DNA from: a candidate division WOR-3 bacterium
GTDB taxonomy: Bacteria; Hydrothermota; Hydrothermia; UBA1063; CAJXJZ01
Length of the DNA stretch: 64,000 nt
NCBI GenBank assembly: GCA_027038175.1
Contig: JALVYB010000079.1
Location: forward strand, 1,215 to 65,214
Direction of reading: 5' to 3'
In this document: piece by piece, positions 931-61,956 of the stretch
Layout: every line of letters begins with the position of its first letter
Numbering within the stretch: position 1 is the stretch's first letter
The notes under the pieces: model-generated
Database searches by the model: none
Told to the model about the DNA's origin: nothing
Seen by the model: only the letters and a program-made list of their open reading frames with translations
Translations under genes and position numbers: made by a program

Positions 931-2439
931 CTACTTCTCCAAATCCATTTCATTTCCATAAATTTTTGAGAGGTATTTATCCACAATTTCTTCAATACTT
1001 TTTCTGAACCCGTTTTCGGTGCTTATTAAACGTTTCCAACCATCCTCATCCTTGCGAAATATCGTGATGAACATATGCTTGTGTGAGCCGTCTTTTGACA
1101 CAAGCAAAGTTCCGTTCTCTTCTGGTATTCCATCCACAACCAGTCTTGCATTCGCACCACTTCTTGTGAAATCCTCCCTTTGTGAGATGAAATCCAAGGT
1201 AAGTTCTTTGTTTTCATCAAGTTTAATCAATGCCACGAATTGCCTTTTTATGTGATTCCAGCTTTGTGGTAAAGATTCAAGCAGTTGCTCATCAGAAAGC
1301 GGTTCGCCATCCACATCCACTTTTTGCAGTATCTGGTATACCTTTTCACCATTAGATAACATTTTATGTATATCCTTGACATTTCTTGCATCATCTCTTG
1401 TCGTGAAAAATATGTACTCTTCTTCTTTTGAAACGTAATATTTACATTTCGTATATTTCTTCAGCATATTTATCTCAAGCCAGTCTGGATTTCCTCTAAA
1501 AACTTCAACGTATTCTTCTTTTGGGTTTATAAGCCCTTTGTTTACCATACGCATGAGTGTAGCATCATCTATTTCTAAAATCTTTTTAAAAAACTTGAGA
1601 GTTCGGGGGTTGAATGATTTATAAAATTCCTTCCATATTCTATCTTGCTCATCTAAAATTTCCAGTACTCTACTGCTATATTCCTTGTAGCCCTCAATAT
1701 CGCCTTTGAGCTTGAGTTTTTTAATTAACGCATCAATCTCCTTTAAATATTCTGTATTGTACATATAACCTCTTGCTTTTACAGATTCTTCAAATCTCTC
1801 AATTCTTCTATTCAAGGTTTTTTTGATTTCTCTTATTTCTGCCTCCTTCAGTTTCTCATTATACGTTTCCTCAAACTGCTCTAAATCTTCTTTCAAATCC
1901 TTGTAATTCTCGGCTAACTTTTTCATATTTTCAAACTTGATTTTTAAGTATTCGGTTGGTAAATTTCCCTCTAAAATGTCTTTTTTTAGGTTATGATACT
2001 TCTTCCCATCCTTTATTTTCTGGGCTTTTCTCATGCTTTCCTCTAAAAATTTTGAAGTTTCATTCTCAATATTTTTTATGCCCAGCTCTTCCAGTTCAGT
2101 AGCGATATGAACGCATTTAGTTGCTTTATTAGTGGGATACCACCCGCTCTCAACATTTCTTTTTATTTCCTCCTTCAATTGATTAAGCAGTTGCGTCTTT
2201 TTTTCAATACGTTCTTTTTTGAGTTCCTCCTCGGAACATGGATAAACCTTTACCTTCGTTCCGTACCTGCATCTCTCAACATCCACTCTCGCAGGGAATG
2301 TAATTGTTTCTCCCACGCTCCATCCTTCTGAAAATTCGTTAATGAGAATCTTTGCCTTCCAGTTTTTTTCGGGAACTATACCCTCATACCATTTCCGCCC
2401 TTTTTTTGTAATTTGATAGGTTACGTTTTTGATAGTCAT
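931..2439 (-). CDS. hypothetical 502-aa protein with a central coiled-coil region
   Basis: Long ORF. The K/E-rich heptad-like central segment (KLKEAEIREIKKTL...) suggests coiled coil. No catalytic motif. Confidence 0.5.
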   Translation of the reverse strand: MTIKNVTYQITKKGRKWYEGIVPEKNWKAKILINEFSEGWSVGETITFPARVDVERCRYGTKVKVYPCSEEELKKERIEKKTQLLNQLKEEIKRNVESGWYPTNKATKCVHIATELEELGIKNIENETSKFLEESMRKAQKIKDGKKYHNLKKDILEGNLPTEYLKIKFENMKKLAENYKDLKEDLEQFEETYNEKLKEAEIREIKKTLNRRIERFEESVKARGYMYNTEYLKEIDALIKKLKLKGDIEGYKEYSSRVLEILDEQDRIWKEFYKSFNPRTLKFFKKILEIDDATLMRMVNKGLINPKEEYVEVFRGNPDWLEINMLKKYTKCKYYVSKEEEYIFFTTRDDARNVKDIHKMLSNGEKVYQILQKVDVDGEPLSDEQLLESLPQSWNHIKRQFVALIKLDENKELTLDFISQREDFTRSGANARLVVDGIPEENGTLLVSKDGSHKHMFITIFRKDEDGWKRLISTENGFRKSIEEIVDKYLSKIYGNEMDLEK

Positions 2440-2442
2440 TGC

Positions 2443-2979
2443 TCACACCTCTACGCTTGAAAGGAGTTGATCTATCAATGCACTTGCAATTTTACTATTG
2501 CTCACGTTGTAAGTTGATGAAAGCCTGTTAATTTTATTAAAGCTTTCTAAACTTATATTGATAGTCATCGCTTTTCTTAATTCTCCTCTTTTTGGTATGT
2601 AATCAGTATCGAAATTGAGAAAGTGACTAACTTCCCTATGCTCAAAGATATTTTCAAGTTCTTTTTTTGAGAGCAGATATATCTTGAAGCCATTTTTTAT
2701 TTCTTTAATGTAAGAAATATCAAAGCCCTTGTTGGTGTAATCCCTGCAAATATGCGATGGAATGTACAATAGATGCCCAGCCTTAACATTCTTTTTAGAT
2801 GTTGCCTTAGAGGTGTTTACTTTTTTGCATTTTTGATTTTGTGTGTAAGAGACTATCACTCTATCGCTCTTGTAACAAGCGTACATATTCTCCCTCACAA
2901 GATAATAAGGGATGTACAACGCACACAGGTTGTTCTTTCTTTCTATTGAGTAAATAGGTATCTTCTTCATATTCAACAC
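2443..2979 (-). CDS. hypothetical protein, possible C-terminal ribbon-helix-helix-like segment
   Basis: 178-aa ORF directly downstream of 931-2439 on the same strand. The C-terminus MTINISLESFNKINRLS...ASALIDQLL resembles an RHH DNA-binding pattern (weak). Confidence 0.4.
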   Translation of the reverse strand: MLNMKKIPIYSIERKNNLCALYIPYYLVRENMYACYKSDRVIVSYTQNQKCKKVNTSKATSKKNVKAGHLLYIPSHICRDYTNKGFDISYIKEIKNGFKIYLLSKKELENIFEHREVSHFLNFDTDYIPKRGELRKAMTINISLESFNKINRLSSTYNVSNSKIASALIDQLLSSVEV

Positions 2980-3170
2980 CTCTTTTTGTCATTAGTGAAG
3001 ATATTGTAGTTATAATACTTAAATTTTTTGCTGAACTTTCACACTCTTATAAAGGGCAAATAACTTTTGCGTAAATGTTTAAATAGGAAAAATACATATT
3101 TAATTTCATCGTATTAAAGTCGTGATGGGAGGTGTGAATATGTATCGGTGTGGTTGTGTAAAAGTATATA

Positions 3171-3470
3171 GTGCAAGTAGGAAATATAGAGGATTCTATG
3201 GAGTTGGTTCAATCTACACGTTATGGGGTGATAACCTTGTATGATATAAATGAAATACGAAATAAAATCATACAAGGAGATGTTTTGGAGGTTTTGAAGA
3301 AAATCCCAGACGAGAGCGTAAACACGATTATTACTTCGCCACCTTACTGGTGTTTGACAGAAGGACATGAAGTCTTTTCCCAAGGCCATAGCCGAAGCCC
3401 TGAACCTCGAAGGAAAGAGCCTCGAAGTGAAACTTCAAGGCAGCAAAATCATCTTGGAGGTAGAGGATGA
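3171..3470 (+). pseudogene. N-terminal fragment of a beta-class N6/N4 DNA methyltransferase (motif IV SPPY)
   Basis: GDVLEVLKKIPDESVNTIITSPPYW is a textbook beta-class MTase motif IV context. The reading frame then degenerates (FSQGHSRSPEPRRKEP...) and ends after 99 aa. Confidence 0.4.
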
Positions 3471-3985
3471 AGCATGAATTAAAAGCAGAACCAGACACGC
3501 CACCAGAACTTGCAGAGTATCTACTGTGGATAATCTTGGAGAAATACTACGAAGAAGGAGACAGATTTTACGAACCATTCAAGGGTAAGGGTGCATTCTA
3601 TAACGCAATGCCAGAACCAAAGGACTGGGCAGAAATAGAAGAAGGAAGAGATTTCTTTGAATACTTGCCTTTTGATGGACATTGCGAACACATAGTAACC
3701 AATCCCCCATTCAGAACATACATAGATGGCAAATGGAAGAACGCATACATTCCCGTGCTGGAGAGAAGCATGAGCATAGCAACGAAAACGATAGGTTTGC
3801 TCATAAATCATAAAATCTTCAACTCCTTAACCCCTCACCGCCTTGAAAAATATAGGAAAAATGGCTGGACAATATCTCACATACACATAGTGAGCGTGAA
3901 GAAGTGGTTTGGCAGGTATTATTTCATAGTTTTCAGGAAAAACAATGGAAAATCATTGATAGAGTTTGATTTAAGAAATTGGTAA
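3467..3985 (+). CDS. DNA adenine-methyltransferase-like protein (gamma-class motif I EPFKGKGAF plus motif IV NPPF), short and possibly truncated
   Basis: LAEYLLWIILE...YEPFKGKGAFYNAM resembles the N6-MTase AdoMet motif I. HIVTNPPF resembles the catalytic motif IV. At only 172 aa there is no room for a target-recognition domain. Confidence 0.45.
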   Translation: MKHELKAEPDTPPELAEYLLWIILEKYYEEGDRFYEPFKGKGAFYNAMPEPKDWAEIEEGRDFFEYLPFDGHCEHIVTNPPFRTYIDGKWKNAYIPVLERSMSIATKTIGLLINHKIFNSLTPHRLEKYRKNGWTISHIHIVSVKKWFGRYYFIVFRKNNGKSLIEFDLRNW

Positions 3986-4023
3986 CTCTTTGCATTGGTG
4001 ATCTCCAACTTCTCACGGGGAAC

Positions 4024-4060
4024 TTCCCCTCATAAGTGAGGGGAAAATTTCAATTTATTA
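4024..4060 (+). terminator. stem-loop TTCCCCTCA-TAAG-TGAGGGGAA followed by a T-rich tract
   Basis: Perfect inverted repeat immediately downstream of the ORF ending at 3985, followed by aaaatttcaatttatt. Confidence 0.45.
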
Positions 4061-4078
4061 CGTTTTACCCTAAAACAT
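4061..4078. repeat. 18-bp exact direct repeat CGTTTTACCCTAAAACAT, copy 1 (contains the palindrome GTTTTACCCTAAAAC)
   Basis: Identical 18-mer at 49261-49278. This copy is intergenic, about 900 bp upstream of an integrase paralog. Confidence 0.6.
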
Positions 4079-4210
4079 AATAAATAATTGCACAAATAGG
4101 TGAGTTTTAGGGGTGGGATTTATATACTCCATTACAAAAATTGTTATGTATAAACTCAACAAAACAATTAAATATGATGATTACATAACAATTAATGTGG
4201 TGATGAAGAA

Positions 4211-4756
4211 ATGGTAAAAGATGAAAGAGAAATGATAAAAGAAGTCGAAGAGGTTATCAAAATAGCGTTTCCAACAGCCGAGTATAAGGAGGATGATGAA
4301 GGAATATCAGTTGAAGTGCCAACATCTGAACCATACTTTTCTGCAAACCAGTTGGGTTTTCTTTCGGAAATGTTTAGAATCATTCAAGAATTTTTAGATG
4401 AAAAACAAAGACATAGCGGATTTGTAAAGATAGAAAGTGTAGATGCAGAAAAGGGTATAAAGTTCAAGATAGTTCTCTTTGTCAAGAAATTATCTTCGGT
4501 GCCTGATGAAAGTACAGAGGCTGAAAACGAAGAAGAGGGAGAAACTGAGTGGAAGAAAATAGAGGAAAAAGTTAAGAATTTGAGTGATGTGCTAATATTA
4601 GTTGGCTACGATAGTTTTTCGCATGAGGTAGAGGTAAAAGTCAAGGAATGCGACGATGACACCTTTAAAAGCACAATAGCACTATTGAGGGAGAAAAGAG
4701 GAAGGTTTGACAAGAACACGAAGACATGGATATTAAAGAAGGAGGTTTTAGAATGA
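4211..4756 (+). CDS. hypothetical acidic protein
   Basis: 181-aa E/D-rich ORF. No motifs. Confidence 0.4.
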   Translation: MVKDEREMIKEVEEVIKIAFPTAEYKEDDEGISVEVPTSEPYFSANQLGFLSEMFRIIQEFLDEKQRHSGFVKIESVDAEKGIKFKIVLFVKKLSSVPDESTEAENEEEGETEWKKIEEKVKNLSDVLILVGYDSFSHEVEVKVKECDDDTFKSTIALLREKRGRFDKNTKTWILKKEVLE

Positions 4757-4968
4757 AGGTAGATTTAGACACGAAAATTTACATCCAACACTATTTCTGG
4801 AGAGAGATTTATTTTGCCTACAAGCCGTCCTATTACGACGATGTGAAAGAGTTAAGAGAAATCATAAACGAAAAAAAGAGGGCTGGTAGAGAGAAGATCT
4901 ACATAAATGGTTTAGGGACTATTTACATAAAAGATATGAACAAAGAGGGAAAAGAGATAGAAATGTGA
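4726..4968 (+). CDS. hypothetical protein
   Basis: 80-aa ORF overlapping the previous gene. Confidence 0.3.
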   Translation: MDIKEGGFRMKVDLDTKIYIQHYFWREIYFAYKPSYYDDVKELREIINEKKRAGREKIYINGLGTIYIKDMNKEGKEIEM

Positions 4969-5111
4969 GGTGATGAAATACGCAACCAATAATAAAGAAT
5001 GGGATAAGGATACTTCGCCCAAGAGAATATGACACACTTCTAGACACCATACACCGCAAAAACACGAAATACAGGTATAGGGAGATACTAAATGCCCTTC
5101 TTTACACGGGA

Positions 5112-5573
5112 ATGAGATATGTAGAGCTGCAAAGATTTCAAAAACACCCAGAGTGGTTTGACAAGAAAACGAGGAGCATTTATCTCCCTCCTGAAGCATC
5201 CAGAAAGAAGAAAAGAACGATGAGAGAGAGGTATGTATATCTCTCTACACAAGGATTGATTCATGTGGAGAACTTTATCCTCTATGTAGATGCTACACCA
5301 ACGAGAGAAGTTCTTGACAACACTTTATCTTTCTGGGGAAAGAAGGCAGGATTGGGAAAGATAAGCGTAAAAACATTCCGAAAAACTTGGGAATCGTGGC
5401 TCGTGGTTAGCTATCCAAATGCACTATCCTTGATAGCAATGTCTCAAGGGCATACTCTTTTCACCGCAATGAACCACTATCTAAACCTACCTTTCACGGA
5501 TGAGGATGTGAAGGAAATAAAGGTAAGGACTGCTGGATGGAGCGGATTTAGAGGTGATGAGAATGTATTATGA
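5112..5573 (+). CDS. small tyrosine recombinase/integrase paralog (XerC/D-like catalytic domain). The homologous frame is open from 4977 but has no in-frame start, so it may be frameshifted or a pseudogene.
   Basis: LNALLYTGMRYVELQ fits box I with Arg-I. KTFRKTWESWLV carries Arg-II. SQGHTLFTAMNHYLN fits the LGH...Y motif with the catalytic Tyr. About 85 percent identical to the 27195 copy. Upstream ATG at 4973 is in another frame (MKYATNNKEWDKDTSPKRI stop). Confidence 0.6.
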   Translation: MRYVELQRFQKHPEWFDKKTRSIYLPPEASRKKKRTMRERYVYLSTQGLIHVENFILYVDATPTREVLDNTLSFWGKKAGLGKISVKTFRKTWESWLVVSYPNALSLIAMSQGHTLFTAMNHYLNLPFTDEDVKEIKVRTAGWSGFRGDENVL

Positions 5574-6387
5574 TGAATGGGATTGGAGTGAGTATAAAGG
5601 AGATATAGTTTGGGTTGGAGGTAATTTGTTCAGAGGAGCGAAGATAACACTCAAACCGCAAAGGCACGGCGAAGACCCATTCCTCTACGGAACCATAGAG
5701 ATGGAATCTCTGGTATGCTTGGATTGTGTAGAACCTTGGAGAAAGAGAGTGTTTGTTGGAGAGTTCCTTCCACACATAGAAGGTGAGAAGGGAATAATCC
5801 TCGTAAAGAACAGGTTGCTTGGAGGAGAAATCAACTACGAGGTCATACACATAAACGATACCTTCGCAAAGAGCGATTGGCTTGAGTGGATTACGAAAGA
5901 TGAGAAATTTTATCACATATCCACAAGGAAAGCGAGATACTTGGTTGATAACGAGACCCTCTGGAAGCTCCATGCGGGGTTGATAGACAAGGTAGAGTTG
6001 AAGAACGGGACTTTGAGAGTTGTTGGCTGGGGTTATCCCGTGAAAGAATACAAGGGAGAGATAAGGATGAAGAAAGATAGCGAGGAATTGAAAGGAGACA
6101 TGATAAGGTTGCACCCTAAAATGCCACCCGTTCTCAAAAAGCACATCTATGGTTTCGTTGAGTTATACAGGAATGGAAAGGTAATTGACAAGGTTGAGGG
6201 AGAGCTGTTCTGGTATGTTGAGCGTGGAAAGGGAATGGTTGTTGTGGCAGATAGAGAACATCCAGAGAAATTGACTTTGAGCAAGGAGGATTTGAAAGCG
6301 GTAATCTACATAAATATGAAAGATAAGGAAGAATGGGAGATACCGAAGATGGAAGGTGGAGCGATAATCTACGGAGGTGTAGGATGA
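5554..6387 (+). CDS. hypothetical protein
   Basis: 277-aa ORF with an ATGA-type overlap with the integrase stop. Confidence 0.45.
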   Translation: MMRMYYDEWDWSEYKGDIVWVGGNLFRGAKITLKPQRHGEDPFLYGTIEMESLVCLDCVEPWRKRVFVGEFLPHIEGEKGIILVKNRLLGGEINYEVIHINDTFAKSDWLEWITKDEKFYHISTRKARYLVDNETLWKLHAGLIDKVELKNGTLRVVGWGYPVKEYKGEIRMKKDSEELKGDMIRLHPKMPPVLKKHIYGFVELYRNGKVIDKVEGELFWYVERGKGMVVVADREHPEKLTLSKEDLKAVIYINMKDKEEWEIPKMEGGAIIYGGVG

Positions 6388-6790: not shown

Positions 6791-7064
6791 AGCGTTAGTA
6801 AGGGTATATGCAGATGGAAAGCAGAAGGTGGTTTTTAAGGACTTGCACGAAGCCACATCTTTTTACAGCGAGTTATTGCTTATAAAAAAGATTCGTGAAA
6901 AGGGTATGCACAATAGAGGTGCATTCATTTACTTATTAGTTCTTCCATTTGGAACCTACATAACGAGATATGAAAATGGGATAAAGGATGGCAAGACATG
7001 GTACATATCAGCAGAAATGGTAAATCTCTTACAAGAAATGCTGGAGGTGGTGCGGGATGCCTGA
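6777..7064 (+). CDS. small protein, member of a tandem paralog family (C-terminal ...EVVRDA)
   Basis: RVYADGKQKVVFKDL N-terminus and C-terminal EVVRDA shared with 7057-7359 and 8447-8749. Conserved junction GAGGTGGTGCGGGATGC at its 3' end. Confidence 0.45.
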   Translation: MKIYEALVRVYADGKQKVVFKDLHEATSFYSELLLIKKIREKGMHNRGAFIYLLVLPFGTYITRYENGIKDGKTWYISAEMVNLLQEMLEVVRDA

Positions 7065-7359
7065 TGTAATTGTAATTAAGATTTATTCGACTGGGAAGAA
7101 AAAAATAATGTGCGGAGAGAGGAGAGAAGGTGAAATTGTAGAATTTACGGCAGAGCGAATAATCAAGGAGCATGGGATGAGGAACAGAGGAGAGTTCATA
7201 GTGATTAGCCGCAGCGGGAATGAGGGGGCATTTATATCACAGTTTATGGATGGTATTTTTTTGAATGGTAATAATAGCACAATTTGGGTTGATGATACGC
7301 AGGTGCTGGTTGATGCGTTGAGAAAATTAAACGAGGAGGTGGTGCGGGATGCGGATTAA
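7057..7359 (+). CDS. small protein, tandem paralog (C-terminal EEVVRDAD)
   Basis: KIYSTGKKKIM...RNRGEF parallels the 6777 copy. Same junction sequence at 7336-7352. Confidence 0.45.
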   Translation: MPDVIVIKIYSTGKKKIMCGERREGEIVEFTAERIIKEHGMRNRGEFIVISRSGNEGAFISQFMDGIFLNGNNSTIWVDDTQVLVDALRKLNEEVVRDAD

Positions 7360-7809: not shown

Positions 7810-8068
7810 AGAATTTGAGAAGAAAACAGAGTTTATTAATGAGAGGCTGTTGGGAGATAGGTATGTAAAATTAAGGGAATATCTTTTAGTTCCAATATAT
7901 GCAGTGGAGTTTAGGAACGAATTGGTAGAGAAATATAATATGTTGTTAGATGACTTCGTTTTATATTATTATGGGAATAGTTTTGATAGTTCAAGATGGT
8001 ATGGAGTTGCAGTTAAAAAGAGATTATACAACAAACTAATAAGCAAAATTAGGGGTGAGGCAAGATGA
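7781..8068 (+). CDS. hypothetical protein
   Basis: 95-aa ORF. Confidence 0.35.
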   Translation: MQVEVRLMNEEFEKKTEFINERLLGDRYVKLREYLLVPIYAVEFRNELVEKYNMLLDDFVLYYYGNSFDSSRWYGVAVKKRLYNKLISKIRGEAR

Positions 8069-8454
8069 TAAGGAAGCAGATTGATGAAAAGGGTGTGCTT
8101 TGGGCTTCTGATGAGCAGTTGCGAATTGAAATACAAGTGCAATGTGAAATTCCTGACCCAATGATGTGCGAGGGAGACTATGAAACATATGAGAGTTTTA
8201 ACTCTGTCCTTGAGTTGTTTGAATGGGTTGTAAAGAACATAGATTTTCTTAAAGAAGTGGAGGACAGTGGTTATGAAATTCGCATCATATTTAAAAGCAG
8301 AGACGTTAAAGACAACTACTATGAGTGGGTTTTTGACACAGACAACAGGGGTTTTGTGCGGTTGTCAATTGAAGTAGGTGATTTAATAGATGATGAACAT
8401 AAACGCTGCCTTGAGAAGTTAAGGAAGATAGAAGAGGTGGTGCGGGATGCGTAA
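8065..8454 (+). CDS. hypothetical protein ending in EEVVRDA
   Basis: 129-aa ORF. Its C-terminal EEVVRDA and the 3' junction GAGGTGGTGCGGGATGCG match the paralog family. Confidence 0.4.
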   Translation: MIRKQIDEKGVLWASDEQLRIEIQVQCEIPDPMMCEGDYETYESFNSVLELFEWVVKNIDFLKEVEDSGYEIRIIFKSRDVKDNYYEWVFDTDNRGFVRLSIEVGDLIDDEHKRCLEKLRKIEEVVRDA

Positions 8455-11591: not shown

Positions 11592-11677
11592 TGAAGTTAG
11601 CAGTTGCTATCGGTGTTATTGAGGTTCTGGTGTATGGTTTGTTGTTTTATTGGGAACTTTTTAAGAGATTTGAAGGT

Positions 11678-12255: not shown

Positions 12256-12268
12256 CGTGTGATGAGAG

Positions 12269-13009: not shown

Positions 13010-13026
13010 TACTTTGAGGGGTTAAA

Positions 13027-50623: not shown

Positions 50624-50630
50624 TCTCAAG

Positions 50631-51876: not shown

Positions 51877-51886
51877 CAACTGCTTA

Positions 51887-54391: not shown

Positions 54392-55021
54392 TCATCTTTC
54401 TGGTGAGTGTTCCCACCATCCATCCCTGTCCAGCTTCTTCACGAAACTTAACATTTGAGAACCAAACCTCTTCGCATAGCTGAACAGTTTTCCCTTGTCC
54501 AGTTCCTCCAAGAACATATCGTCCAGATCGGAGAGTAGGCTATTCAAGGAATACTTGCCTTTGAAATAGCGGAAGTAAATCATGTCCAGTACTGCCTTTT
54601 CAGGTTCGGCGAAGGCAACGCCAGAAGGATGTTCCGTGTATCCAAAGAACAGCACGGGTGAGATTTGATGGTACTCCACGAAGTAATTTCCCAGAACCAA
54701 GGGCTTCGTTTTGACATTCTTCAAAGTCACGATGGTGAACGTGTAAATGTTCTGCTTGTAGATGTCTCCAGATAACGCATACTCCATGGATGCGTAAGAG
54801 GGCTTTTTGTAATCCAAGGCAATTTTGAGGTAGTTTTGAGGCACAAAAGGGTTCAAGTACTGCCCACGCAATCCTTTTGAAACCACTCCGCTCTTCACCA
54901 GACGGCTCAGGGCAGTTGATAGAGTTTCTCTTTTCATGTTTAAAGCACCTGCTAACTCACTCACGGTGAATACTTTTTTTCCACTCTTACGCATATATGC
55001 CAGAATTCTCACGGCACTCAT
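54392..55021 (-). CDS. winged-helix regulator with AbiEi-antitoxin-like architecture
   Basis: N-terminal FTVSELAGALNMKRETLSTALSRLVKSGVV is a wH/HTH. The C-terminal domain resembles AbiEi_4-type proteins (weak). Confidence 0.4.
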   Translation of the reverse strand: MSAVRILAYMRKSGKKVFTVSELAGALNMKRETLSTALSRLVKSGVVSKGLRGQYLNPFVPQNYLKIALDYKKPSYASMEYALSGDIYKQNIYTFTIVTLKNVKTKPLVLGNYFVEYHQISPVLFFGYTEHPSGVAFAEPEKAVLDMIYFRYFKGKYSLNSLLSDLDDMFLEELDKGKLFSYAKRFGSQMLSFVKKLDRDGWWEHSPER

Positions 55022-55191: not shown

Positions 55192-56613
55192 ATGTGTGCT
55201 GACGGGTTTGGTGGGGACGATAACTATCTTCTAAAAATACTCAAAGAAAGAGATAAGGGATTCTCTTATAACTTGAGCGTGTTTGATGACTACAATATAC
55301 CTCCCAAGATTCTTCATAGAAAAAAAGAGATTGAAACGTTGCTTGGATATGTTCTGGGAATAATAAGAGGAGAGTTGAATAAGGTTGATTTGAACATTTA
55401 CGGGCTAACAGGAACGGGGAAAACAGTTACCACCAAAAAGATAATGAGAGACACAAAAGAGTTTATGAAAAGGAAAGACTATAAACAGCAAGGTTTTAGG
55501 AAAATTGATTTCCTTTATTTCCACGTCTATTCCGAGATGTTACCAGCATCTTTTTTTAGTGAGATGAACAAGTGGTTGTTCAAGAAAACATATAGCCCAA
55601 AAAAAGGCCTGTCTTCTCTCGTGAGTTTATTTATGGGCAACTTAGATAAATACATGAAATCAAACGGCTTGGACGCTTTAATTCTTGTTATTGATGATAT
55701 TCACAGGGTTAAAAATATGGATTATTCTGCTTTTGCGGGAATACTGAGAAACACGTATAACAACAACGTTTCCCTGTGGCTCATATCCAATAGTGCCATC
55801 AAACCGCATCTTCCGTTAGAACTTCAAGCGAACCTTTTAGGAATGAAATTCAGGAGATACGATGTGGGAGAGCTTCTGGAAATATTTGCGATGTACGTTC
55901 AGAACGCAGGTGCTGAACAATGTTTTAGTGATTTGACTGCGTTTATGAGGGATTTGGCCAGTTGGGTGGAAGTTCATGCAAAGTCAAGTGTGAGGGCTGG
56001 ACTAATTGTTCTGAAACACGCATTGCTCTCTATGATTAATGACGGTAGAAACACAATCACTCAGGAAGATATGGAAAAGGGCAAAGAGATGGTTAAAATA
56101 GTTGATATTACAGAAATGTTAGAGACGATGAGGAGCGAGTTAGTTTTGACTCTTGTCCTTGCATTAAGGAGAATGGCAATTGAAGGGAAGGAAGGCATAA
56201 ACACCATCCAGTTATACAAAGATTTCAGGAACTATGTGTCTTACTACATACCTTTTTCAAGATCAAAGGATTTGAGCATGAGGGAGTTCAGGAACTTTAT
56301 AGCCGATTTGGAAGAGCTTGGTTTAATTATGAGAGAGCAGGTTGGTAAAGGAAGGGGCAAAGGGAGTGAGAGTTTGTTGTATGTGCAGGAAGGATTAAGT
56401 ATTGTTCAAGCTTTTGTGGATTTGATAGAAGGAAACAAGAACACTTCTTGGGTTTTTGAAGACCCGAAGTTACTGGTGAGCATATCAAAGAGCAATGCAC
56501 CGCTTGTTCTCTACGATAGCTTCACGCAGAAAATAAGAGGCATGGTGGATATGTTTGAGAAGGATGGGAAAGTGTATGTTTCTTATTCAAAGCCTTATGA
56601 ATTCGGGGGGTGA
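55192..56613 (+). CDS. Orc1/Cdc6-family AAA+ initiator protein
   Basis: HRKKEIETLLGYVL...NIYGLTGTGKTVTTKKI is the Orc1/Cdc6 N-terminal arrangement with Walker A. Walker B LILVIDDIH. The length (473 aa) allows a C-terminal wH domain. Confidence 0.6.
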   Translation: MCADGFGGDDNYLLKILKERDKGFSYNLSVFDDYNIPPKILHRKKEIETLLGYVLGIIRGELNKVDLNIYGLTGTGKTVTTKKIMRDTKEFMKRKDYKQQGFRKIDFLYFHVYSEMLPASFFSEMNKWLFKKTYSPKKGLSSLVSLFMGNLDKYMKSNGLDALILVIDDIHRVKNMDYSAFAGILRNTYNNNVSLWLISNSAIKPHLPLELQANLLGMKFRRYDVGELLEIFAMYVQNAGAEQCFSDLTAFMRDLASWVEVHAKSSVRAGLIVLKHALLSMINDGRNTITQEDMEKGKEMVKIVDITEMLETMRSELVLTLVLALRRMAIEGKEGINTIQLYKDFRNYVSYYIPFSRSKDLSMREFRNFIADLEELGLIMREQVGKGRGKGSESLLYVQEGLSIVQAFVDLIEGNKNTSWVFEDPKLLVSISKSNAPLVLYDSFTQKIRGMVDMFEKDGKVYVSYSKPYEFGG

Positions 56614-57107
56614 TTCGTGTGCGTTTAGAGAAGGAGGAGAGAATATTGCTCATTCAAAACAACATACTTAGGAAAAAAGAGGATTTGTTTGCCTTCAAAG
56701 CAACCGTTAGAAAGAGGGGCAATGGATGGGTTTTTTTTGTACCCAGTTATATAGTCAAGAAGTTTAACATAAGAGAGGGTTCTGTTTTGAGTTTTTATAT
56801 TTTAGAGCTTTGGCAGTCGGTTAAATCACTAAAAGGGAAGGAGATAATCAAAACGGAACTTTTGAGCGAGATGGGAAAACCGATAATAAAATTCAAAGAT
56901 TATGAAGTTTCTTTCTTAAAAGTTAAAAGTTTTGGAAAAAGATACAAGTATGCGGTTATATACATACCAAAGGATTATATATCAAGATATAATATTAAGT
57001 CTGGAGATGCAATAGGCGTTCACATAACGTCTGTCGGGGGTGGTGGTATTCGTGAACATTATGACTCAGAAGGATATGATAGAAGCGATAAAGAAGGCAA
57101 AACCTGA
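56610..57107 (+). CDS. protein with two AbrB/MazE-like swapped-hairpin repeats
   Basis: FKATVRKRGNGWVFFVPSYIVKKFNIREGSVLSF and KRYKYAVIYIPKDYISRYNIKSGDAIGVHI both fit the pattern ..IPK.....I..GD.V. Overlaps the cdc6 stop. Confidence 0.4.
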   Translation: MIRVRLEKEERILLIQNNILRKKEDLFAFKATVRKRGNGWVFFVPSYIVKKFNIREGSVLSFYILELWQSVKSLKGKEIIKTELLSEMGKPIIKFKDYEVSFLKVKSFGKRYKYAVIYIPKDYISRYNIKSGDAIGVHITSVGGGGIREHYDSEGYDRSDKEGKT

Positions 57108-58143
57108 AGAAAGGTACAAGTTCGCAGGAGACGAACTTTTGTATGAGAATTGCCCTGAATGCTTTTTTATGTTGGCGATGGATGAAAACAACAGGGTTCG
57201 CATGGAACTTGCAAAGAGGTTTTATGTTTACAAAGACAGAATGAGATTTCTCACGATTGCTACTGACCCCAACCCAGGGGTTAGGAGAATTATGTTTGAA
57301 GAGATAATGAAGTTCAAGCCACATTTTATGGAATTGTTTGTTGAGAATCCACCTCTTGCAGTTATGTATTCGCTTGGAAGAGACAAGGCTTTGGTGAAAA
57401 AGTTTTGGCTGTCTTGGTATAGCTATTTGAGACATAGGGTTGGGTATTTCATAGAGACTCCTGAAGAAGAAAAGACCCGTGGCAAGATGGGGTTAGCGAA
57501 GTGGTTGCATCTATATGAGGAGGAGCCAGAAGAATACGAGAATATGTTAGCAACTGCTAAAAAGGCAGTATTGATACAATTGTTATCTAGGCCTGATGTT
57601 GGGTTGGTGTTGCGGAAGTTATCCAAAGATGAGATGAACTTTTACGAAAGGGCGAATGGGTTTGGGGCTTATTTGGACAGGTTACAATTAAGTATGCACC
57701 CGTACTTTGCTTACTACTCTCCATTTAGCAAAGCGGTATTTTATATTAATGAAATCAACAGGGCTGTAAAGAAGGTGTGGAAGAAATGCGGGAGGTACAA
57801 TTCAGAAGTAGGTTATTTTCTGGTGCCAAAAAGAAGCAGTAAAGATGTTTTAAAAAATCCGATGGTTATTTGGGAAATGTTGCAGTTGAATTTTGTAGGA
57901 ATTCACAAAATTTTGTTTGACTTGAACGCAATAAAGGGCAAATGGACAAAGAACGATTTTGTAAGGAGAGTTATGAAGAAAGAAATATTTGAAGATAGAG
58001 AAGTCATAGAATCGATATTCACGCTGCTTCTTTCAAGGGCGTCTCTGGTTGAATTTTTTGATGGTAAATATTCTGCTGTCAATCTTCATTTGGGTCTCAA
58101 TAGTTTTGTGAGGGAAGGAAGTTTTGACATAGATATTAGTTAA
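57040..58143 (+). CDS. hypothetical 367-aa protein
   Basis: Long ORF. A start at about 57067 is possible. Confidence 0.4.
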   Translation: MVVFVNIMTQKDMIEAIKKAKPEERYKFAGDELLYENCPECFFMLAMDENNRVRMELAKRFYVYKDRMRFLTIATDPNPGVRRIMFEEIMKFKPHFMELFVENPPLAVMYSLGRDKALVKKFWLSWYSYLRHRVGYFIETPEEEKTRGKMGLAKWLHLYEEEPEEYENMLATAKKAVLIQLLSRPDVGLVLRKLSKDEMNFYERANGFGAYLDRLQLSMHPYFAYYSPFSKAVFYINEINRAVKKVWKKCGRYNSEVGYFLVPKRSSKDVLKNPMVIWEMLQLNFVGIHKILFDLNAIKGKWTKNDFVRRVMKKEIFEDREVIESIFTLLLSRASLVEFFDGKYSAVNLHLGLNSFVREGSFDIDIS

Positions 58144-58150: not shown

Positions 58151-58195
58151 TAATTTCCGCTCTAAAACCATTAACGGTTAACCATTAACCGTTAA
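58151..58195. promoter_or_regulatory. iteron copy TAATTTCCGCTCTAAAACC followed by the perfect palindrome TTAACGGTTAA-CCA-TTAACCGTTAA upstream of parA; candidate operator/centromere
   Basis: The same 15-mer as the ori-region iterons. 11-bp perfect arms. The TTAACGG core is also the 3' part of the iteron unit. Confidence 0.5.
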
Positions 58196-58235
58196 AAGAT
58201 AATTTTATATACTTACAATACATATCGTCATACAG

Positions 58236-58970
58236 ATGTCGGACATAAAATATGTTGGGATTTTTACAACGAAGGGGGGCGTTGGGAAGACAACAATATC
58301 CGTGAACGTGGCGGAGATGGTTGGCTGGAGGGAGAAAGTTCTCCTGCTTGAGATGGATACGAATCACTCAATAACCTCACTTCTCAAGGTTCGGGCAACC
58401 AAAATTAGTGAGATAAAGAAAGGTGTTTCTCCTCGCAAGGTTGGTAATTTTTATCTAGTTTCTATGGATGGAGAAACACAGAAAGTTGAGAGAACCATTC
58501 CACCAGAAAAGATTATGAATGGGATTGGCAAAGCACTTGCTGATTTTGATAAAGTGATAGTTGATTTTCCCAGTACTATTTCGCCTTTGGTTCTTTATTT
58601 AATGGACAGGATGGATTTTGTTGCGGTTCCGTTTGTTCCTTCTTTCTTGGGTTTGGGTGCATGGTATTACACTAAAAACATTTTTAAAATTTTAGGGTAT
58701 GATTCTTATGGTTTGTTTTTGAATATGTGTAAGTTTTCCCTATTTAGATCCAAGGAGGAGAGAGAGTTAATGGAGAGGTTAAATAGGGAGGAGAAGTTCA
58801 TGAAGGGTTTGGCTATTCCTTATGACAGGCGGGTTTTAAGAGCGGAAAAGCTCCATGTACCCGCAGTTGCTGAATTTCCCAAGTCAAGGTTCTCCAAAGG
58901 TATTGAAAAGTTTGTTAAACGTGTTTTTGGGGGTGATATGGTTGCCAACGATAGGATTAAAAGTAGATGA
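58236..58970 (+). CDS. parA: ParA/MinD-family partition ATPase
   Basis: Deviant Walker A GIFTTKGGVGKTTIS. A short ORF follows immediately. Confidence 0.65.
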   Translation: MSDIKYVGIFTTKGGVGKTTISVNVAEMVGWREKVLLLEMDTNHSITSLLKVRATKISEIKKGVSPRKVGNFYLVSMDGETQKVERTIPPEKIMNGIGKALADFDKVIVDFPSTISPLVLYLMDRMDFVAVPFVPSFLGLGAWYYTKNIFKILGYDSYGLFLNMCKFSLFRSKEERELMERLNREEKFMKGLAIPYDRRVLRAEKLHVPAVAEFPKSRFSKGIEKFVKRVFGGDMVANDRIKSR

Positions 58971-59184
58971 TGAAACGAAAAAGTTATGGGATATACTGAA
59001 CAAGCATCCAGATAGGGTAGGTACTGCTGAATTGAGAAAGGCTTTGAAGCGGATTATAGAAGAATACAGGTGGTGGATTGAAAGGTACGAATCCATAACG
59101 GAGAAAAAGGGGATTGAAGAAGGGTTGGATATTTCAGAAGTATTCGTCATGGCTGAAAAGGACATATTAAAAGAATTTGAGTGA
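58933..59184 (+). CDS. small protein downstream of parA (candidate partition adaptor / centromere-binding partner)
   Basis: The frame overlaps the parA 3' end. The likely GTG/TTG start near 58933-58942 gives about 83 aa. Confidence 0.35.
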   Translation: MIWLPTIGLKVDDETKKLWDILNKHPDRVGTAELRKALKRIIEEYRWWIERYESITEKKGIEEGLDISEVFVMAEKDILKEFE

Positions 59185-59258
59185 GCAGCTGCAAAACTAT
59201 TATGAACTAATAAAAACATTTATAAATCATTTTCGCATTTACTACAATAGGTGAATGG

Positions 59259-59777
59259 ATGATAGTCTGTGAGAGTGAATCTTGCCTGATGAAATGTCGG
59301 TTTTGTGGCAAAGTGGTTAAGCCACCTGATTCGTGTCGTGGGTGTGGGCAAGAGAGTTTTGTTTTTGTAGAGAGGGGTTCGTTAGAAAGTTATGTTGCAA
59401 GGAACGTTCATTCCAGTGTCTTGATTCCAAGGGCAGTTTATGACAGGTTTTGGATAGTTGAACGTTACAATTTTAATGCCCATTATCTTGATAGAACCAA
59501 GAGAATAATATACTATGCAAGTAAAAAGATTCCAAGCGAAATAGTGGAGAAAGCGTTGGATAAGATACAAGCGTATTACCTTCTTTACCCTGATTTAATC
59601 CCAAATATTGTGGAGACACATATGATTTCCGCAGATTTTAAAAAGGATTATACCATACATAACTATATGGTGACTTATCCCGTTCACCAAACGATAAAAA
59701 ACATAGCAAATGCTTACGGGATAACGGTTTTGGATTTAGTGACTGCGTTTTTGATTTACGTTTACGGGGGTGTGTGA
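59259..59777 (+). CDS. zinc-ribbon-containing hypothetical protein
   Basis: N-terminal CESESCLMKCRFCGK...CRGCG is a Cys4 zinc ribbon. Confidence 0.4.
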   Translation: MIVCESESCLMKCRFCGKVVKPPDSCRGCGQESFVFVERGSLESYVARNVHSSVLIPRAVYDRFWIVERYNFNAHYLDRTKRIIYYASKKIPSEIVEKALDKIQAYYLLYPDLIPNIVETHMISADFKKDYTIHNYMVTYPVHQTIKNIANAYGITVLDLVTAFLIYVYGGV

Positions 59778-61956
59778 TGTGTGGAGTAAAATAAGATTGT
59801 TTGTGGTTATGGGCATAATATTGGCAATCTTGTTTGGTGTTTGGGCAACAACCACGTATGTCAATCTCGGTGCTTTGACTGCTTTGGGAGTTGCCAATAC
59901 TCCTTTTGACATAAAAAGCACCAGCTCAAAAGTTACGCCGTTGGGTGATGAAATGTCCAGCTATTCTGGTGAAATGATGTCTTTAACTTTCAATTCTTTG
60001 CAGGATTTGGAAAAATTTTACTCAACCAATTATTTTGTTTACTACCATTACAAATCTCCATCAAATCCGTGGGTTGGTTATTCTGTTTCTGCACAGTTGA
60101 AAACATCATCTCTTCATTACTTCTTTGGGGGGAAGGAATATTTTGTAATTTTGCCCATGGGTGTTGTAAACAAGAACACTAACGAGCTGAGAACGATTAC
60201 TCCTAAAACGCAGATTTCTATATCAAACCTCCCTAAGAACGTTGTAGTAATACTCACGGGCTTTTCATCATCCCAGATAACATTAAACAATATTCAAGGT
60301 ACAGTTTTGATCGGAGTTCTTGTCCAGCCTGAAGTGGAGTATCACACAACAGTTCTATGGTTTTTCCATACCACAACGATTTCAAAGGCAGCAGGTACTT
60401 CTGGAATACAGAACACAGCCATCATTTCCAAAAACGTAAATAAACTGATGATAACGTCTTATCTTTCAGATAGTGGCACAAGCAATATAATAACCGTGCA
60501 ACATTCTAATGAAGTTATATTAAGTGGTGTCTCCACTTTTGCGTGGGCTACAAAAAACAAGGGATGGCAAACCAATGTTCCAGTGGTGATAAAGCACGTT
60601 CATAATTTCATAATAAAAGATAGTATCGGGGTGTATTTTGACGAAAATAACAGGACAACAGAGGGTGTGTTTGGATATTATTCAAGAGGTTATGGAGTTG
60701 GGTTATACTTGCAGTATATTGATAATTTTTACCTCAATGGTACGTTATATTTAAGTGGGTTCTCACCGAATAACAATACAGGGCTATTTGCGGATCACGT
60801 CTATCATTTTGGAAGTAATCTAAAAAATAATGAGATACAGTTCAACGGGGATGAGGGAGATTTGTATATGTATTACAACGTGACGGAAAGTTACAAGGTT
60901 GGAACCAAGAGGAATGGGGATACTGTGGTATTTGACAGAAAGAACACCACCAGATATTATTTCTTTGTTCTCAGTAGTAGTAGGATTAATAAGGGAAATC
61001 CTTTTGATTATGCGGTAATTTCAAAATTTTATGGGAATTATGGATTGAATGGTAGTTTTTTCTCATATAAGAGATATGGAGAAATTGAAGGCGGAGTTGA
61101 TTTAAACGAGATGAAATGGAATGATTCAAGTCAGAGTGGGAACTCTTTTGTTCCATCAGATAAGAATTATCTTTTAAACAATCCAAAACTTGTAAAAGAC
61201 TATCTTACTTTTTACATCTATTACAAAGCACACCATATAACCCACCATTTCTATTATTTTGAGGATGTGAAGGTTCTGCTTGTTGGAAAAACATATACAT
61301 ATAGTTCAGCTATATTCGAGAGAACGCACAACGGAATCACTTACTATTACACTACTGAGTTCTCCCCTACAAATGTCTTTATTTACAAGCATTTGTTATC
61401 AAACACAACACTTGTTTTGAAGAATGGAGGAAATGGAGGAAATGCAAGTATCAACGGGACTTCTGGAAACATATATCCTGAGTATGTTCGTGTAATTGAA
61501 CATCAATACAAATGGGATGGCTTCGTGCATTTCAAGGTTTTAGTGTGGGCTAACGTGACGATGAACGGCTTTATAAAGTTAGACAATTTAAATTATGGTA
61601 TATCTGTTCCAGATAATGGGGGTAATGAATCTTCACTGGTGGCGTACGTTAAACAGCTAAACGGAACACCAGCAGCGCAGAACGTGAAACAAATCGTGCA
61701 GTATTATGCAGCATATAATTCATATTACACACCTTTGAATTTTCTCTTTCCTTACTTGTCTTTAAGCACGTTTATGGTTTTCCTAGTGTCTTTTGCATTT
61801 GTGAGGTGGGCTTATTTGATGATTCTACACAACGACACGCCAGAAGAAGTGGCAAAGAATAAGCAACTGCTTAAACACATATTTATAGGGGCGGTAATAA
61901 TTTTCTTTGTGTTGTACAATTATGGGGTGATTCTCAATGTTTTTAGCTTTCCGTGA
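59770..61956 (+). CDS. membrane-anchored surface protein with many N-glycosylation sequons
   Basis: N-terminal TM helix IRLFVVMGIILAILFGVWA. A roughly 600-aa S/T/N/Y-rich ectodomain with numerous N-x-S/T sites. C-terminal TM helices. ATGA-type overlap with the next genes. Confidence 0.5.
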   Translation: MCDVWSKIRLFVVMGIILAILFGVWATTTYVNLGALTALGVANTPFDIKSTSSKVTPLGDEMSSYSGEMMSLTFNSLQDLEKFYSTNYFVYYHYKSPSNPWVGYSVSAQLKTSSLHYFFGGKEYFVILPMGVVNKNTNELRTITPKTQISISNLPKNVVVILTGFSSSQITLNNIQGTVLIGVLVQPEVEYHTTVLWFFHTTTISKAAGTSGIQNTAIISKNVNKLMITSYLSDSGTSNIITVQHSNEVILSGVSTFAWATKNKGWQTNVPVVIKHVHNFIIKDSIGVYFDENNRTTEGVFGYYSRGYGVGLYLQYIDNFYLNGTLYLSGFSPNNNTGLFADHVYHFGSNLKNNEIQFNGDEGDLYMYYNVTESYKVGTKRNGDTVVFDRKNTTRYYFFVLSSSRINKGNPFDYAVISKFYGNYGLNGSFFSYKRYGEIEGGVDLNEMKWNDSSQSGNSFVPSDKNYLLNNPKLVKDYLTFYIYYKAHHITHHFYYFEDVKVLLVGKTYTYSSAIFERTHNGITYYYTTEFSPTNVFIYKHLLSNTTLVLKNGGNGGNASINGTSGNIYPEYVRVIEHQYKWDGFVHFKVLVWANVTMNGFIKLDNLNYGISVPDNGGNESSLVAYVKQLNGTPAAQNVKQIVQYYAAYNSYYTPLNFLFPYLSLSTFMVFLVSFAFVRWAYLMILHNDTPEEVAKNKQLLKHIFIGAVIIFFVLYNYGVILNVFSFP

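Follow-up and report, generated by a model that had tools for sequence, protein, structure and literature searches.

A high-copy DNA word maintained by selection in a family of archaeal conjugative plasmids

A short DNA word of the form GCA-NN-TGC recurs throughout a 64,000-nucleotide stretch of contig JALVYB010000079.1 (hereafter the window), which belongs to a circular conjugative plasmid, some 94 kb in size, from an archaeon of a deep-sea vent; the plasmid is related to an integrative and conjugative element (ICE) of Aciduliprofundum. The word is spread plasmid-wide in either orientation, in genes as well as between them, and related plasmids carry their own versions of it. It is maintained by selection on double-stranded DNA, to which both codon choice and amino-acid sequence have been bent. 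Sequence comparisons indicate that it is conserved in place over a short evolutionary distance and turned over across larger ones. We tentatively propose, with somewhat less than even confidence in the explanation as a whole, that this is the recognition word of an archaeal conjugative plasmid family, marking plasmid DNA for a process that acts on the whole molecule.

An exact search of the window finds 29 copies of the octamer GCAGTTGC/GCAACTGC, where dinucleotide shuffles give 0.89 ± 1.0 (maximum 5) and Markov models of orders 1 to 3 give 0.75-1.28. The decamer AGCAGTTGCT, or its reverse complement AGCAACTGCT, is present 21 times versus 0.10 expected from the shuffles and 0.07-0.16 from the same Markov models (0.16 at third order), and the word ranks first among the over-represented 8-, 9- and 10-mers of the window. 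The octamer is thus enriched ~20-30-fold and the decamer over 100-fold, values that fall within the 15-300-fold range of HIP1-type words (HIP1, for highly iterated palindrome 1), which likewise occupy both genes and intergenic DNA. An earlier reading made by eye from the letters alone (the sequence-only reading) had put the enrichment at about 10-fold over an expectation of 2-3 copies; the first figure was too low and the second too high, the computed expectation being about 1. All 22 positions that it listed are true copies to within 0-5 nt, although seven others escaped it (16574, 19974, 23001, 23808, 24648, 24939 and 27584). The check that it had named beforehand as able to overturn the claim, a k-mer count against a third-order Markov model, places the enrichment far outside expectation (29 versus 1.28).

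The octamer is itself too narrow a description. The true unit is GCA-NN-TGC, of which the window holds 55 copies compared to 7.4 ± 2.7 expected. When the spacer is varied from 0 to 6 nucleotides, the counts for GCA-Nn-TGC are 0, 5, 55, 4, 6, 6 and 7, and those for AGCA-Nn-TGCT are 0, 0, 36, 1, 0, 0 and 0; thus, two nucleotides is the sole enriched spacer length in that range, and the three-nucleotide spacer, for example, gives 4 copies where 7.3 are expected. Adding 19 kb of flanking sequence to the window yields 74 copies in 83 kb of plasmid at unchanged density, or about one copy per 1.1 kb over the whole molecule. Single-mismatch profiling reveals next to no variation in the GCA and TGC arms, while the centre and the outermost A/T positions are tolerant. 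The centres of the 74 copies are AC/GT (36), AG/CT (16), GG/CC (9), AA/TT (5), GA/TC (4), AT (3) and GC (1), with TA, CG and CA/TG never used.

Folding the two flanks together gives the half-site T(0.50) T(0.51) a/t A(0.78) GCA, and in both half-sites the share of T at -3 and -4 reaches ~50-69% over a background of 28-31%. The whole site therefore approximates a 16-bp dyad, TTaAGCA-NN-TGCTtAA. Perfectly palindromic centres are rare, however: if half-sites combined freely, ~32 copies with centre AT and ~10 with centre GC would be expected, compared to the 3 and 1 found. The plasmid DNA shows no avoidance of CAATTG or CAGCTG themselves; the scarcity thus means that the site consists of two unlike inverted half-sites, GCAA and GCAG. 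Similarity between copies stops after ~16 nt, and no Rfam family matches within the window. A dispersed repeat of the repetitive extragenic palindromic or miniature inverted-repeat transposable element type was rejected on these grounds, as the units are ~16 nt long and not longer than 20 nt. A literature search for the word itself returned primers only.

Most copies (49 of 55, or 89%) lie inside open reading frames (ORFs), using a simple non-overlapping ORF set that makes the window 93.6% coding. The remaining six are found in ~4 kb of non-coding DNA, where ~0.5 would be expected, so that non-coding enrichment about equals coding enrichment. In what follows a copy is denoted forward when GCAGTTGC stands on the + strand and reverse when GCAACTGC does; copies with other centres carry no orientation. 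The intergenic copies are GCACTTGC at 924-931 (flanks A..T), a forward decamer at 11600-11607 (intergenic by the simple gene calls), GCAAGTGC at 13403-13410 (flanks A..T), GCAAGTGC again at 17245-17252 beside the relaxase operon, a reverse decamer at 51876-51883, and GCAGCTGC at 59185-59192, the sole copy with centre GC.

The genic copies occupy two reading frames, 30 encoding Ala-X-Ala and 19 encoding Gln or His followed by Leu, Val or Met, with none in the third frame, which would need Cys. The sequence-only reading had placed copies in all three frames, and in this it was mistaken; its observation that they lie on both strands relative to transcription is borne out (15 and 12 canonical copies relative to the coding strand), as is its report of copies in non-coding DNA. 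Gln-Leu is encoded by forward copies at 1281-1288 (decamer AGCAGTTGCT) and 2187-2194 (flanks A..G), both in ORF 931-2439(-), 8115-8122 (flanks A..G; ORF 8065-8454(+)), 12033-12040 (decamer; ORF 12019-12255(+)), 31676-31683 (flanks C..T; ORF 31320-33467(+)) and 35633-35640 (decamer; ORF 35367-37388(+)), and by reverse copies at 27584-27591 (flanks C..G; integrase-like ORF 27195-27848(+)), 30677-30684 (decamer; ORF 29844-31262(+)) and 61863-61870 (decamer; ORF 59770-61956(+)). Gln-Val is the reading of GCAGGTGC at 7299-7306 (ORF 7057-7359(+)), 27060-27067 (flanks A..T; ORF 26830-27249(+)) and 42303-42310 (ORF 42001-42600(+)) and of GCAAGTGC at 9545-9552 (ORF 9456-9722(+)). Gln-Met is read from GCAAATGC at 28349-28356 (flanks A..T; ORF 27924-29033(+)) and GCAGATGC at 63554-63561 (flanks A..T; ORF 63126-63914(+)), and His-Leu from GCACTTGC at 26743-26750, in the integrase-like ORF 26219-26836(+).

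In the Ala-X-Ala frame, Ala-Thr-Ala is encoded by reverse decamers at 36801-36808 and 37347-37354 (both in ORF 35367-37388(+)) and 57550-57557 (ORF 57040-58143(+)), and by a forward decamer at 52918-52925 (ORF 52074-53675(-)). Ala-Val-Ala is encoded by forward copies at 51390-51397 (decamer; ORF 50604-51413(+)) and 58863-58870 (flanks C..T; parA, 58236-58970(+)), and Ala-Ser-Ala by GCACTTGC at 2480-2487 (ORF 2443-2979(-)) and GCAAGTGC at 32817-32824 (flanks A..T; ORF 31320-33467(+)). Further genic copies are GCAATTGC, a rare perfect palindrome, at 26681-26688 (ORF 26219-26836(+)) and at 41728-41735 (flanks A..T; ORF 41587-41847(+)); GCAAGTGC at 43071-43078 (flanks A..T; ORF 42597-43112(+)), 49727-49734 (flanks A..T; ORF 49191-49772(+)) and 53452-53459 (ORF 52074-53675(-)); GCACCTGC at 54945-54952 (flanks A..T; winged helix-turn-helix (wHTH) ORF 54392-55021(-)); GCAGGTGC at 55906-55913 (orc1/cdc6-like ORF 55192-56613(+)); GCACTTGC at 58533-58540 (flanks A..T; parA); and GCAAATGC at 59706-59713 (flanks A..T; ORF 59259-59777(+)).

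That all genic copies fall in two frames coding for common peptides, and that four of them lie in paralogous immunoglobulin (Ig)-like repeats of a single protein, might suggest an artefact of codon bias, peptide composition or domain duplication. We give this account virtually no credence. Two shuffling nulls, one keeping proteins and codon usage (synonymous shuffle) and one permuting codon order within each gene, are exceeded 4-50-fold: the 49 genic copies of GCA-NN-TGC compare with 11.6 ± 3.1 and 7.1 ± 2.8, respectively, and the 32 genic copies of AGCA-NN-TGCT with 2.3 and 0.7. The four copies, all reverse, are located in a 2607-aa protein (ORF 17972-25795(-)) at 23001-23008 (decamer, Ala-Val-Ala), 23808-23815 (YAVAYD), 24648-24655 (decamer, IAVAED) and 24939-24946 (YAVAYD). 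They are not independent because the repeats are paralogous, but dropping them changes nothing.

Codon tables point the same way. The peptides A[TV]A and QLL are themselves in excess (24 versus 5.6 ± 2.4 and 11 versus 2.6 ± 1.5). Ala-Thr-Ala is spelled GCA ACT GCT in 9 of 13 occurrences and Ala-Val-Ala is spelled GCA GTT GCT in 7 of 11, where ~3-4% would be expected in each case. The codons of Gln-Leu are coupled (CAA-CTG 7, CAG-TTG 8, CAA-TTG 3, CAG-CTG 2); CTG is a rare Leu codon in the plasmid (11%). Two paralogues encode the same peptide, QLLPHALV, through opposite orientations of the decamer: the reverse copy at 38862-38869 (ORF 37378-39300(+)) uses CAA CTG CT, and the forward copy at 40814-40821 (ORF 39297-41309(+)) uses CAG TTG CT, so the word has been kept in reversed orientation. 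The earlier proposal that selection acts on the DNA and not on peptides is thus upheld by the shuffles, the forced codon spelling and the non-coding copies; together with the synonymous third positions conserved in the variant described below, the same evidence disposes of the artefact. A by-product of palindrome avoidance was rejected by argument, given that CAATTG and CAGCTG are not avoided and most synonymous spellings of Ala-Thr-Ala stay open even if the avoided words are forbidden.

A plasmid variant from another study (L203) is collinear with window positions 12187-25665 at 88.8% nucleotide identity, with no rearrangement over these 13.5 kb. Fourteen of the 16 GCA-NN-TGC copies in this interval are in place in the variant, compared to the 51% expected for six arm positions, and one copy differs in its centre only. 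The canonical copies are identical over 12 nt in 10 of 10 cases, synonymous third positions included, against a background in which 12-nt windows are identical in 27.8% of cases and the 60-nt flanks around copies show 85.5% identity. Both losses and both gains involve non-canonical centres. The losses are GCAGATGC at 15864-15871 (relaxase-like ORF 15665-16381(-)) and GCATTTGC at 18567-18574 (in the 2607-aa protein), and in the intergenic copy at 13403 the arms are kept while the centre changes from AG to GG. Besides the intergenic copy at 17245, the identical copies include the reverse decamer at 16574-16581 (ORF 16324-17154(-), Ala-Val-Ala), a forward decamer at 17860-17867 (ORF 17589-17975(-), Ala-Thr-Ala) and four forward Ala-Thr-Ala copies in the 2607-aa protein, at 18666-18673, 22293-22300 and 22869-22876 (decamers) and 19974-19981 (flanks A..G). 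That protein also carries GCACCTGC at 19926-19933 (Ala-Gly-Ala) and GCACTTGC at 24435-24442 (flanks A..T, Ala-Ser-Ala). The coupling protein TraG of the variant (L203 10001-12148) is 95% identical to its counterpart at 13506-15653, and the differences are confined to its two ends while the middle is identical, a mosaic that suggests recombination between plasmid variants.

Methyltransferase-coupled repair was once proposed as the drive behind HIP1, and an analogous process, in which sequence-biased repair or gene conversion turns near-matches into a functionless word, might operate here. It would be helped by the Poisson-like spacing of copies, their random orientation, the presence of the word in every module, the concentration of one-mismatch variants at the outermost and central positions, and the presence of a small methyltransferase-like ORF. 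Near-cognate words are not clearly depleted, however (24 observed versus 30 expected), no Vsr-like or 5-methylcytosine methyltransferase gene was found among the ORFs scanned, and the positional conservation of canonical copies lies far above background. For HIP1, positional conservation beyond background was taken to favour selection over replenishment by Xu et al. (PMC5861425). The conserved canonical copies in the variant plasmid, which show the same HIP1-like behaviour between relatives, by that argument favour selection over neutral replenishment, and we regard neutral drive as improbable.

The orientations of the word are nearly balanced, at 21 and 15 copies. They do not differ between the two halves into which the putative origin divides the plasmid (Fisher P = 0.72), and the best split point for orientation is no better than chance (permutation P = 0.57). 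A polar guide of the Chi, FtsK orienting polar sequence (KOPS) or SpoIIIE recognition sequence (SRS) type, giving a translocase or nuclease its direction with respect to replication or transfer, would fit the octamer length and the density, and FtsK/HerA-type ATPases are encoded (TraG and VirB4). Nevertheless, without strand polarity, also relative to the coding strand (15 and 12), the word is not Chi- or KOPS-like. Such a guide is scarcely credible, and the Chi-like or architecture-type polar signal that had been considered from the letters is excluded by the strand and replichore tests. The same near-equal orientations without replication polarity are a property of DNA uptake sequences (DUS) and uptake signal sequences (USS). 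Copies are placed uniformly within genes and do not cluster at promoters. An operator, centromere or origin repeat was likewise rejected, since 49 of 55 copies lie in ORFs and the repeats of the partition locus (AACCATTAACCGTT, a 14-bp tandem at 58166-58195) and of the origin (GAGCGGAAAT, 53782-54365) are sequences distinct from the word.

Relatives of the plasmid were collected using the TraG region as marker and are represented by pieces of 13-31 kb only. The closest TraG relatives all belong to metagenome-assembled genomes (MAGs) of DHVE2, Aciduliprofundum or Thermoplasmata. Two relatives, L002 (TraG 46% identical) and L004 (50%), carry GCA-N2-TGC at 18 copies in 22 kb and 17 in 14 kb, with spacer-specific enrichment and C..G flanks: TTCC..GGAA in L002, whose dialect is TTCCGCAGTTGCGGAA, and tT(a/c)C in L004. 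A third, L011/L080 (38%), uses the strict word GCAACCGC(Y), present in both orientations at 31 copies in 21.8 kb (1.4 per kb) versus 0.6 expected. It is the sole locus with spacing more even than random (coefficient of variation 0.65, P = 0.009), and its copies code for Gln-Pro-Pro seven times. The same GCAACCGC occurs five times in 13 kb of L021 (47%), which has no GCA-N2-TGC excess to accompany it, GCA-N2-TGC being absent. The elements L012, L010 and L013 and the A. boonei ICE (TraG 32-39%) have no word. The dialects have the core GCAAC(T/C)GC in common. Copy positions are mostly non-homologous between distant relatives; for example, traG itself contains no copy in the window, one in L004, five in L002 and one in L011. 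A further contig, the 1.4-Mb L005, was reached through a 43-aa fragment and discarded as unrelated (GC 28%).

The question of whether the word is a signature of the host, hyper-abundant in its chromosome as HIP1 or USS/DUS are and merely adopted by the plasmid, was addressed with chromosomal loci gathered using a chromosomal A. boonei gene as bait. These loci, of 10-21 kb each, represent four Aciduliprofundum-type lineages: the A. boonei flank of L062, L063 (G+C 0.37), L065-L069 (G+C 0.41; L065 comes from a sister sample within the same study) and L070-L079 (G+C 0.30). None of the loci L062-L079 shows enrichment of either dialect or a spacer-specific excess. Hosts were also assigned indirectly, by comparing avoidance profiles of the sixteen 4-nt palindromes. 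The profiles of L002, L011, L021 and L012 correlate with those of sampled chromosomes (r = 0.59-0.94; L002 with L065, r = 0.92; L011 with L063, r = 0.82), so that the word-bearing L002 and L011 share the profile of exactly those chromosomes that lack the word, the chromosomes of their likely host group. Conversely, the profile of the window plasmid has r of about 0 with both the related plasmids and all sampled DHVE2 chromosomes.

That profile, counted on the window plus flanks (L006 1-9995 and L008 12033-21161), is extreme. Among 4-nt palindromes, CCGG occurs 0 times versus 93 expected, CGCG 0 versus 37, GCGC 3 versus 53, GATC 43 versus 314 and CTAG 58 versus 226. Many hexameric palindromes stand at 0-1 copies versus 10-38 expected, including GATATC (0 versus 29), GAGCTC (0 versus 19), AGATCT (1 versus 38), ATGCAT (1 versus 33) and CTTAAG (1 versus 25). 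Such purging implies a different host, or a host very rich in restriction systems. The presence of the same core GCAAC(T/C)GC in plasmids with quite different host exposure favours a property of the plasmid family and argues against a host signature. For the latter speak the grouping of dialects by sample or study and not by TraG phylogeny, the few or no copies in a low-G+C cargo region of L080, as expected of recent arrivals, and the avoidance profile of the window plasmid, which would place its true host outside the sample. On balance we consider a host-wide signature unlikely, and infer that the word belongs to the plasmid family and not to the host genome, with the proviso that the chromosomes sampled are those of the likely host group only. 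The suggestion of an uptake or recognition sequence in the sequence-only reading thus remains alive where the plasmid family is concerned, but a corresponding property of the host genome was not seen in these chromosomes.

Restriction targets are depleted in mobile elements, and the plasmid purges restriction-type palindromes (CCGG and AGATCT among them) while the word is enriched 10-100-fold, which argues against the word being the target of a restriction-modification system or of a methyltransferase of the element. GCA-NN-TGC is shaped like a type II site, and candidate enzymes exist. One is a 172-aa methyltransferase-like ORF at 3467-3985(+) with FxGxG and NPPF motifs, the sole gene of this kind found in the window, which matches PHROG 799 'DNA methyltransferase' (E 2e-17) but no Pfam, NCBIfam or PDB entry. 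Homologues are missing from the portions of related plasmids with the word that have been sequenced, and the ORF was not linked to the word. The other is a 759-aa N6_Mtase/Eco57I-type gene (L080 16167-18446), which was rejected as the common determinant because it is absent elsewhere; it lies within the low-G+C cargo of L080, in a stretch (G+C 0.32) free of the word. These methyltransferases are not related to each other, neither is common to the word-bearing plasmids, no restriction enzyme or defence match was found among the ORFs scanned, and perfect palindromic centres are disfavoured. A restriction or methylation target, one of the possibilities raised from the letters, is therefore very improbable.

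The symmetric flanks, and the fact that they change between plasmids, suggest a sequence-specific protein that recognizes the word in double-stranded DNA; the word would be its binding site, with two inverted unlike half-sites, GCAA and GCAG. Binding by this putative reader would mark the plasmid DNA. We favour a process that recognizes plasmid DNA when it is transferred, taken up or recombined between related plasmids, comparable to DUS/USS or HIP1. Such a process would reward each additional copy and would account for the dialects. More specifically, a conjugation or DNA-import protein might recognize TTNNGCA-NN-TGCNNAA, so that DNA of the right dialect would be preferentially moved or recombined; the word would then be driven to about one copy per kb, and related plasmids would split into exchange groups. 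By analogy with known uptake systems, a plasmid-owned signal of this kind is conceivable, but in this specific form we hold it to be unlikely.

Several observations weigh against a recognition word of the plasmid family. A role in transfer or uptake is drawn from analogy, and we found no candidate for the reader protein. Likewise, comparison of gene content (13-31 kb per relative) reveals no convincing determinant that co-occurs with the word. The version in L011 is not dyad-symmetric, which fits a simple homodimer site badly. The type of word departs from the TraG tree, since L021 (C-type) is closest to L002 (T-type) at 60.7% identity, and the dialect is common to plasmids from a single sample; a factor determined by host or habitat would fit this pattern too. 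The chromosome samples are small, and the host of the window plasmid lies outside them, the plasmid's profile matching none. Finally, spacing in the window plasmid is not regular, and there is a gap of 6.6 kb without copies (43071-49727), although this is not significant alone (P = 0.15). Like the rest of the plasmid, the gap lacks CCGG and CGCG.

A different role for a bound protein also must be weighed, namely that the copies are chromatin or protection sites at which a plasmid-encoded binder serves compaction, silencing, heat protection, or shielding from nucleases or plasmid restriction. Such sites would suit dyad arms of 14-16 bp, flank positions that differ between plasmids, an orientation-independent word and copies strongly conserved in place, and several small ribbon-helix-helix and winged-helix proteins are encoded on the plasmid. 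However, 89% of copies are genic with none clustered at promoters, the partition and origin repeats differ from the word, and selection on each of ~74 redundant sites should be weak unless some drive exists. We judge this role rather unlikely, and return to a plasmid-family recognition word as the tentatively preferred explanation.

The carrier is documented by two independent assemblies of the same DNA from a deep-sea vent metagenome, a 94,105-bp NCBI contig and a 94,018-bp European Nucleotide Archive (ENA) scaffold (scaffold_82). These are circularly permuted, as judged by comparing window positions 1-5740 with the ENA scaffold, and the molecule is therefore circular. Logan contigs of another run are 100% identical to the plasmid. 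No chromosomal genes and no match to tRNA genes were found within the window. A megablast search with 25 kb against phage and plasmid collections gave no match, tblastn of TraG against plasmids gave distant haloarchaeal and bacterial matches only, and scans of IMG/VR with TraG, the Tas-like protein described below and a double-word pattern gave nothing, or chance and tandem-repeat matches only.

The element is conjugative, as indicated by a TraG/TrwB-type coupling protein (TraG, a type IV coupling protein) found by homology at 13506-15653(-), a weak match to MobA/VirD2-like relaxases at 15665-16381(-), and a ribbon-helix-helix-like accessory gene at 16324-17154(-). Genes for VirB4-like and AAA ATPases are situated just past the window end. 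At 17475-17503, in AT-rich non-coding DNA beside the relaxase operon, is a perfect inverted repeat, AATGGAAAGTTTCG-A-CGAAACTTTCCATT, whose arms are 14 bp long; it is a candidate origin-of-transfer hairpin or terminator. The large ORF at 17972-25795(-) encodes the 2607-aa protein with Big (Ig-like) domains.

An Orc1/Cdc6 gene (55192-56613(+)) adjoins a non-coding region at 53782-54365, between ORF 52074-53675(-) and the wHTH gene at 54392-55021(-), that carries seven exact copies of (G)AGCGGAAAT in both orientations; this is probably a replication origin with boxes resembling origin recognition boxes. The partition locus (58166-59184) consists of the AACCATTAACCGTT repeat upstream, parA (58236-58970(+)) and an 80-aa ribbon-helix-helix-like ORF (58942-59184).

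Three short genes (153-217 aa) resembling tyrosine recombinases lie at 5112-5573, 26219-26836 and 27195-27848, and their homologues, which contain PF00589, are found in MAGs of DHVE2 and Archaeoglobus; the first is 86% identical to a copy in the word-free element L012 of an Aciduliprofundum MAG. Two further proteins have counterparts in L002: an AmmeMemoRadiSam-type radical-SAM enzyme (28963-29883; 233 bits versus a cut-off of 220), at 62% identity, and a protein of the DUF5131 (Gp37/Gp68-like) type (50604-51413), at 38%. A gene for a Cas4-like nuclease is also present in the window. Five consecutive paralogous ORFs of 640-715 aa fill ~10 kb at 31320-41309(+) and match no Pfam, PHROG or PADLOC family. 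A 323-aa protein (46680-47651(+)) scores 98.4 bits (E 5e-28; cut-off 100) with NCBIfam NF052498 'TIGR-Tas system RNA-guided endonuclease', also matches a PHROG 'transposase' family, and has a paralogue at L006 7668-8555. Neither the window nor its flanks yielded a TIGR-like array, and a link between this system and the word was rejected, as the other word-bearing loci also have no Tas homologue.

Among known systems, DUS and USS occur at about one copy per kb with equal orientations, in genes where they shape peptides, and they show one-base dialects between related lineages, the words being maintained by transfer-linked drive. The plasmid word is similar in using only the tolerable frames (two of three) and in distorting peptides (A[TV]A, QLL and, in L011, Gln-Pro-Pro). 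It differs in that DUS of Neisseria and USS of Pasteurellaceae are chromosomal words of naturally competent bacteria, for which an uptake receptor is known or inferred, and are asymmetric and often arranged as inverted pairs in terminators, whereas the present word resides on a conjugative plasmid. We know of no uptake sequence in Archaea. Chi, KOPS and SRS are also over-represented octamers, but they are read by DNA-processing motors and are strand-biased by replication, unlike the plasmid word.

A 16-bp 'recombination motif', TAAACTGGGGAGTTTA, was reportedly described in Sulfolobus conjugative plasmids by Stedman et al. in 2000 and Greve et al. in 2004; it is said to occur in few copies per plasmid, at the borders of variable regions, and to have been read as recombination sites. 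The two elements are alike in length, inverted arms, asymmetric centre and repetition in archaeal conjugative plasmids, although the plasmid word has ~74 copies, mostly genic, with no rearrangement relative to the variant plasmid over 13.5 kb. The ICE of A. boonei T469 is the sole archaeal ICE found by Guglielmini et al. 2011 (PMC3158045). It has the same conjugation backbone as the window element (TraG 32% identical, relaxase-like gene shared) but lacks the iterated word, and the window element is instead a circular plasmid with Orc1/Cdc6 and ParA.

A further likeness is to HIP1 (GCGATCGC). Both are G+C-rich 8-nt words with palindromic arms, over-represented 15-300-fold at about one per gene, genic as well as intergenic, and frequently read as Ala-X-Ala. 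Between genomes, HIP1 copies show conservation above background, read as selection by Xu et al. (PMC5861425); alternative versions exist in some lineages (PMC4390886), and recent proposals tie HIP1 to transformation and type IV secretion system genes (bioRxiv 10.64898/2026.06.24.733823, 10.1101/2024.09.10.611283). HIP1 is, however, a perfect palindrome, whereas the centres AT, GC, TA and CG are the rarest in the plasmid word (3, 1, 0 and 0 of 74) and AC/GT is favoured. It is also chromosomal, phylum-wide in cyanobacteria and served by known cognate methyltransferases, whereas the plasmid word belongs to an archaeal plasmid family and is absent from the sampled chromosomes of the likely host group.

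High-copy words under DNA-level selection are rare, and each known case has exposed a DNA-handling machine. To our knowledge, those described so far (USS/DUS, Chi, KOPS and HIP1) are all bacterial and chromosomal. The word reported here is carried by a conjugative plasmid family of archaea from vents, has one-base and flank dialects, and is apparently absent from the chromosomes of the likely host group. If it is a host-wide signature after all, Archaea would have their first described word of the HIP or USS kind; if it is a transfer or uptake signal, no archaeal system akin to DUS/USS would precede it, nor any such system linked to a conjugative element and not to a competent host. The question of the reader could be addressed by presenting a defined 16-bp probe (TTAAGCAACTGCTTAA) to a short list of plasmid proteins, and the word may serve as a sequence marker for plasmid exchange groups in metagenomes. 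Should machinery for transfer, uptake or maintenance prove to read it, the word would offer a direct handle on DNA recognition in archaeal conjugation.

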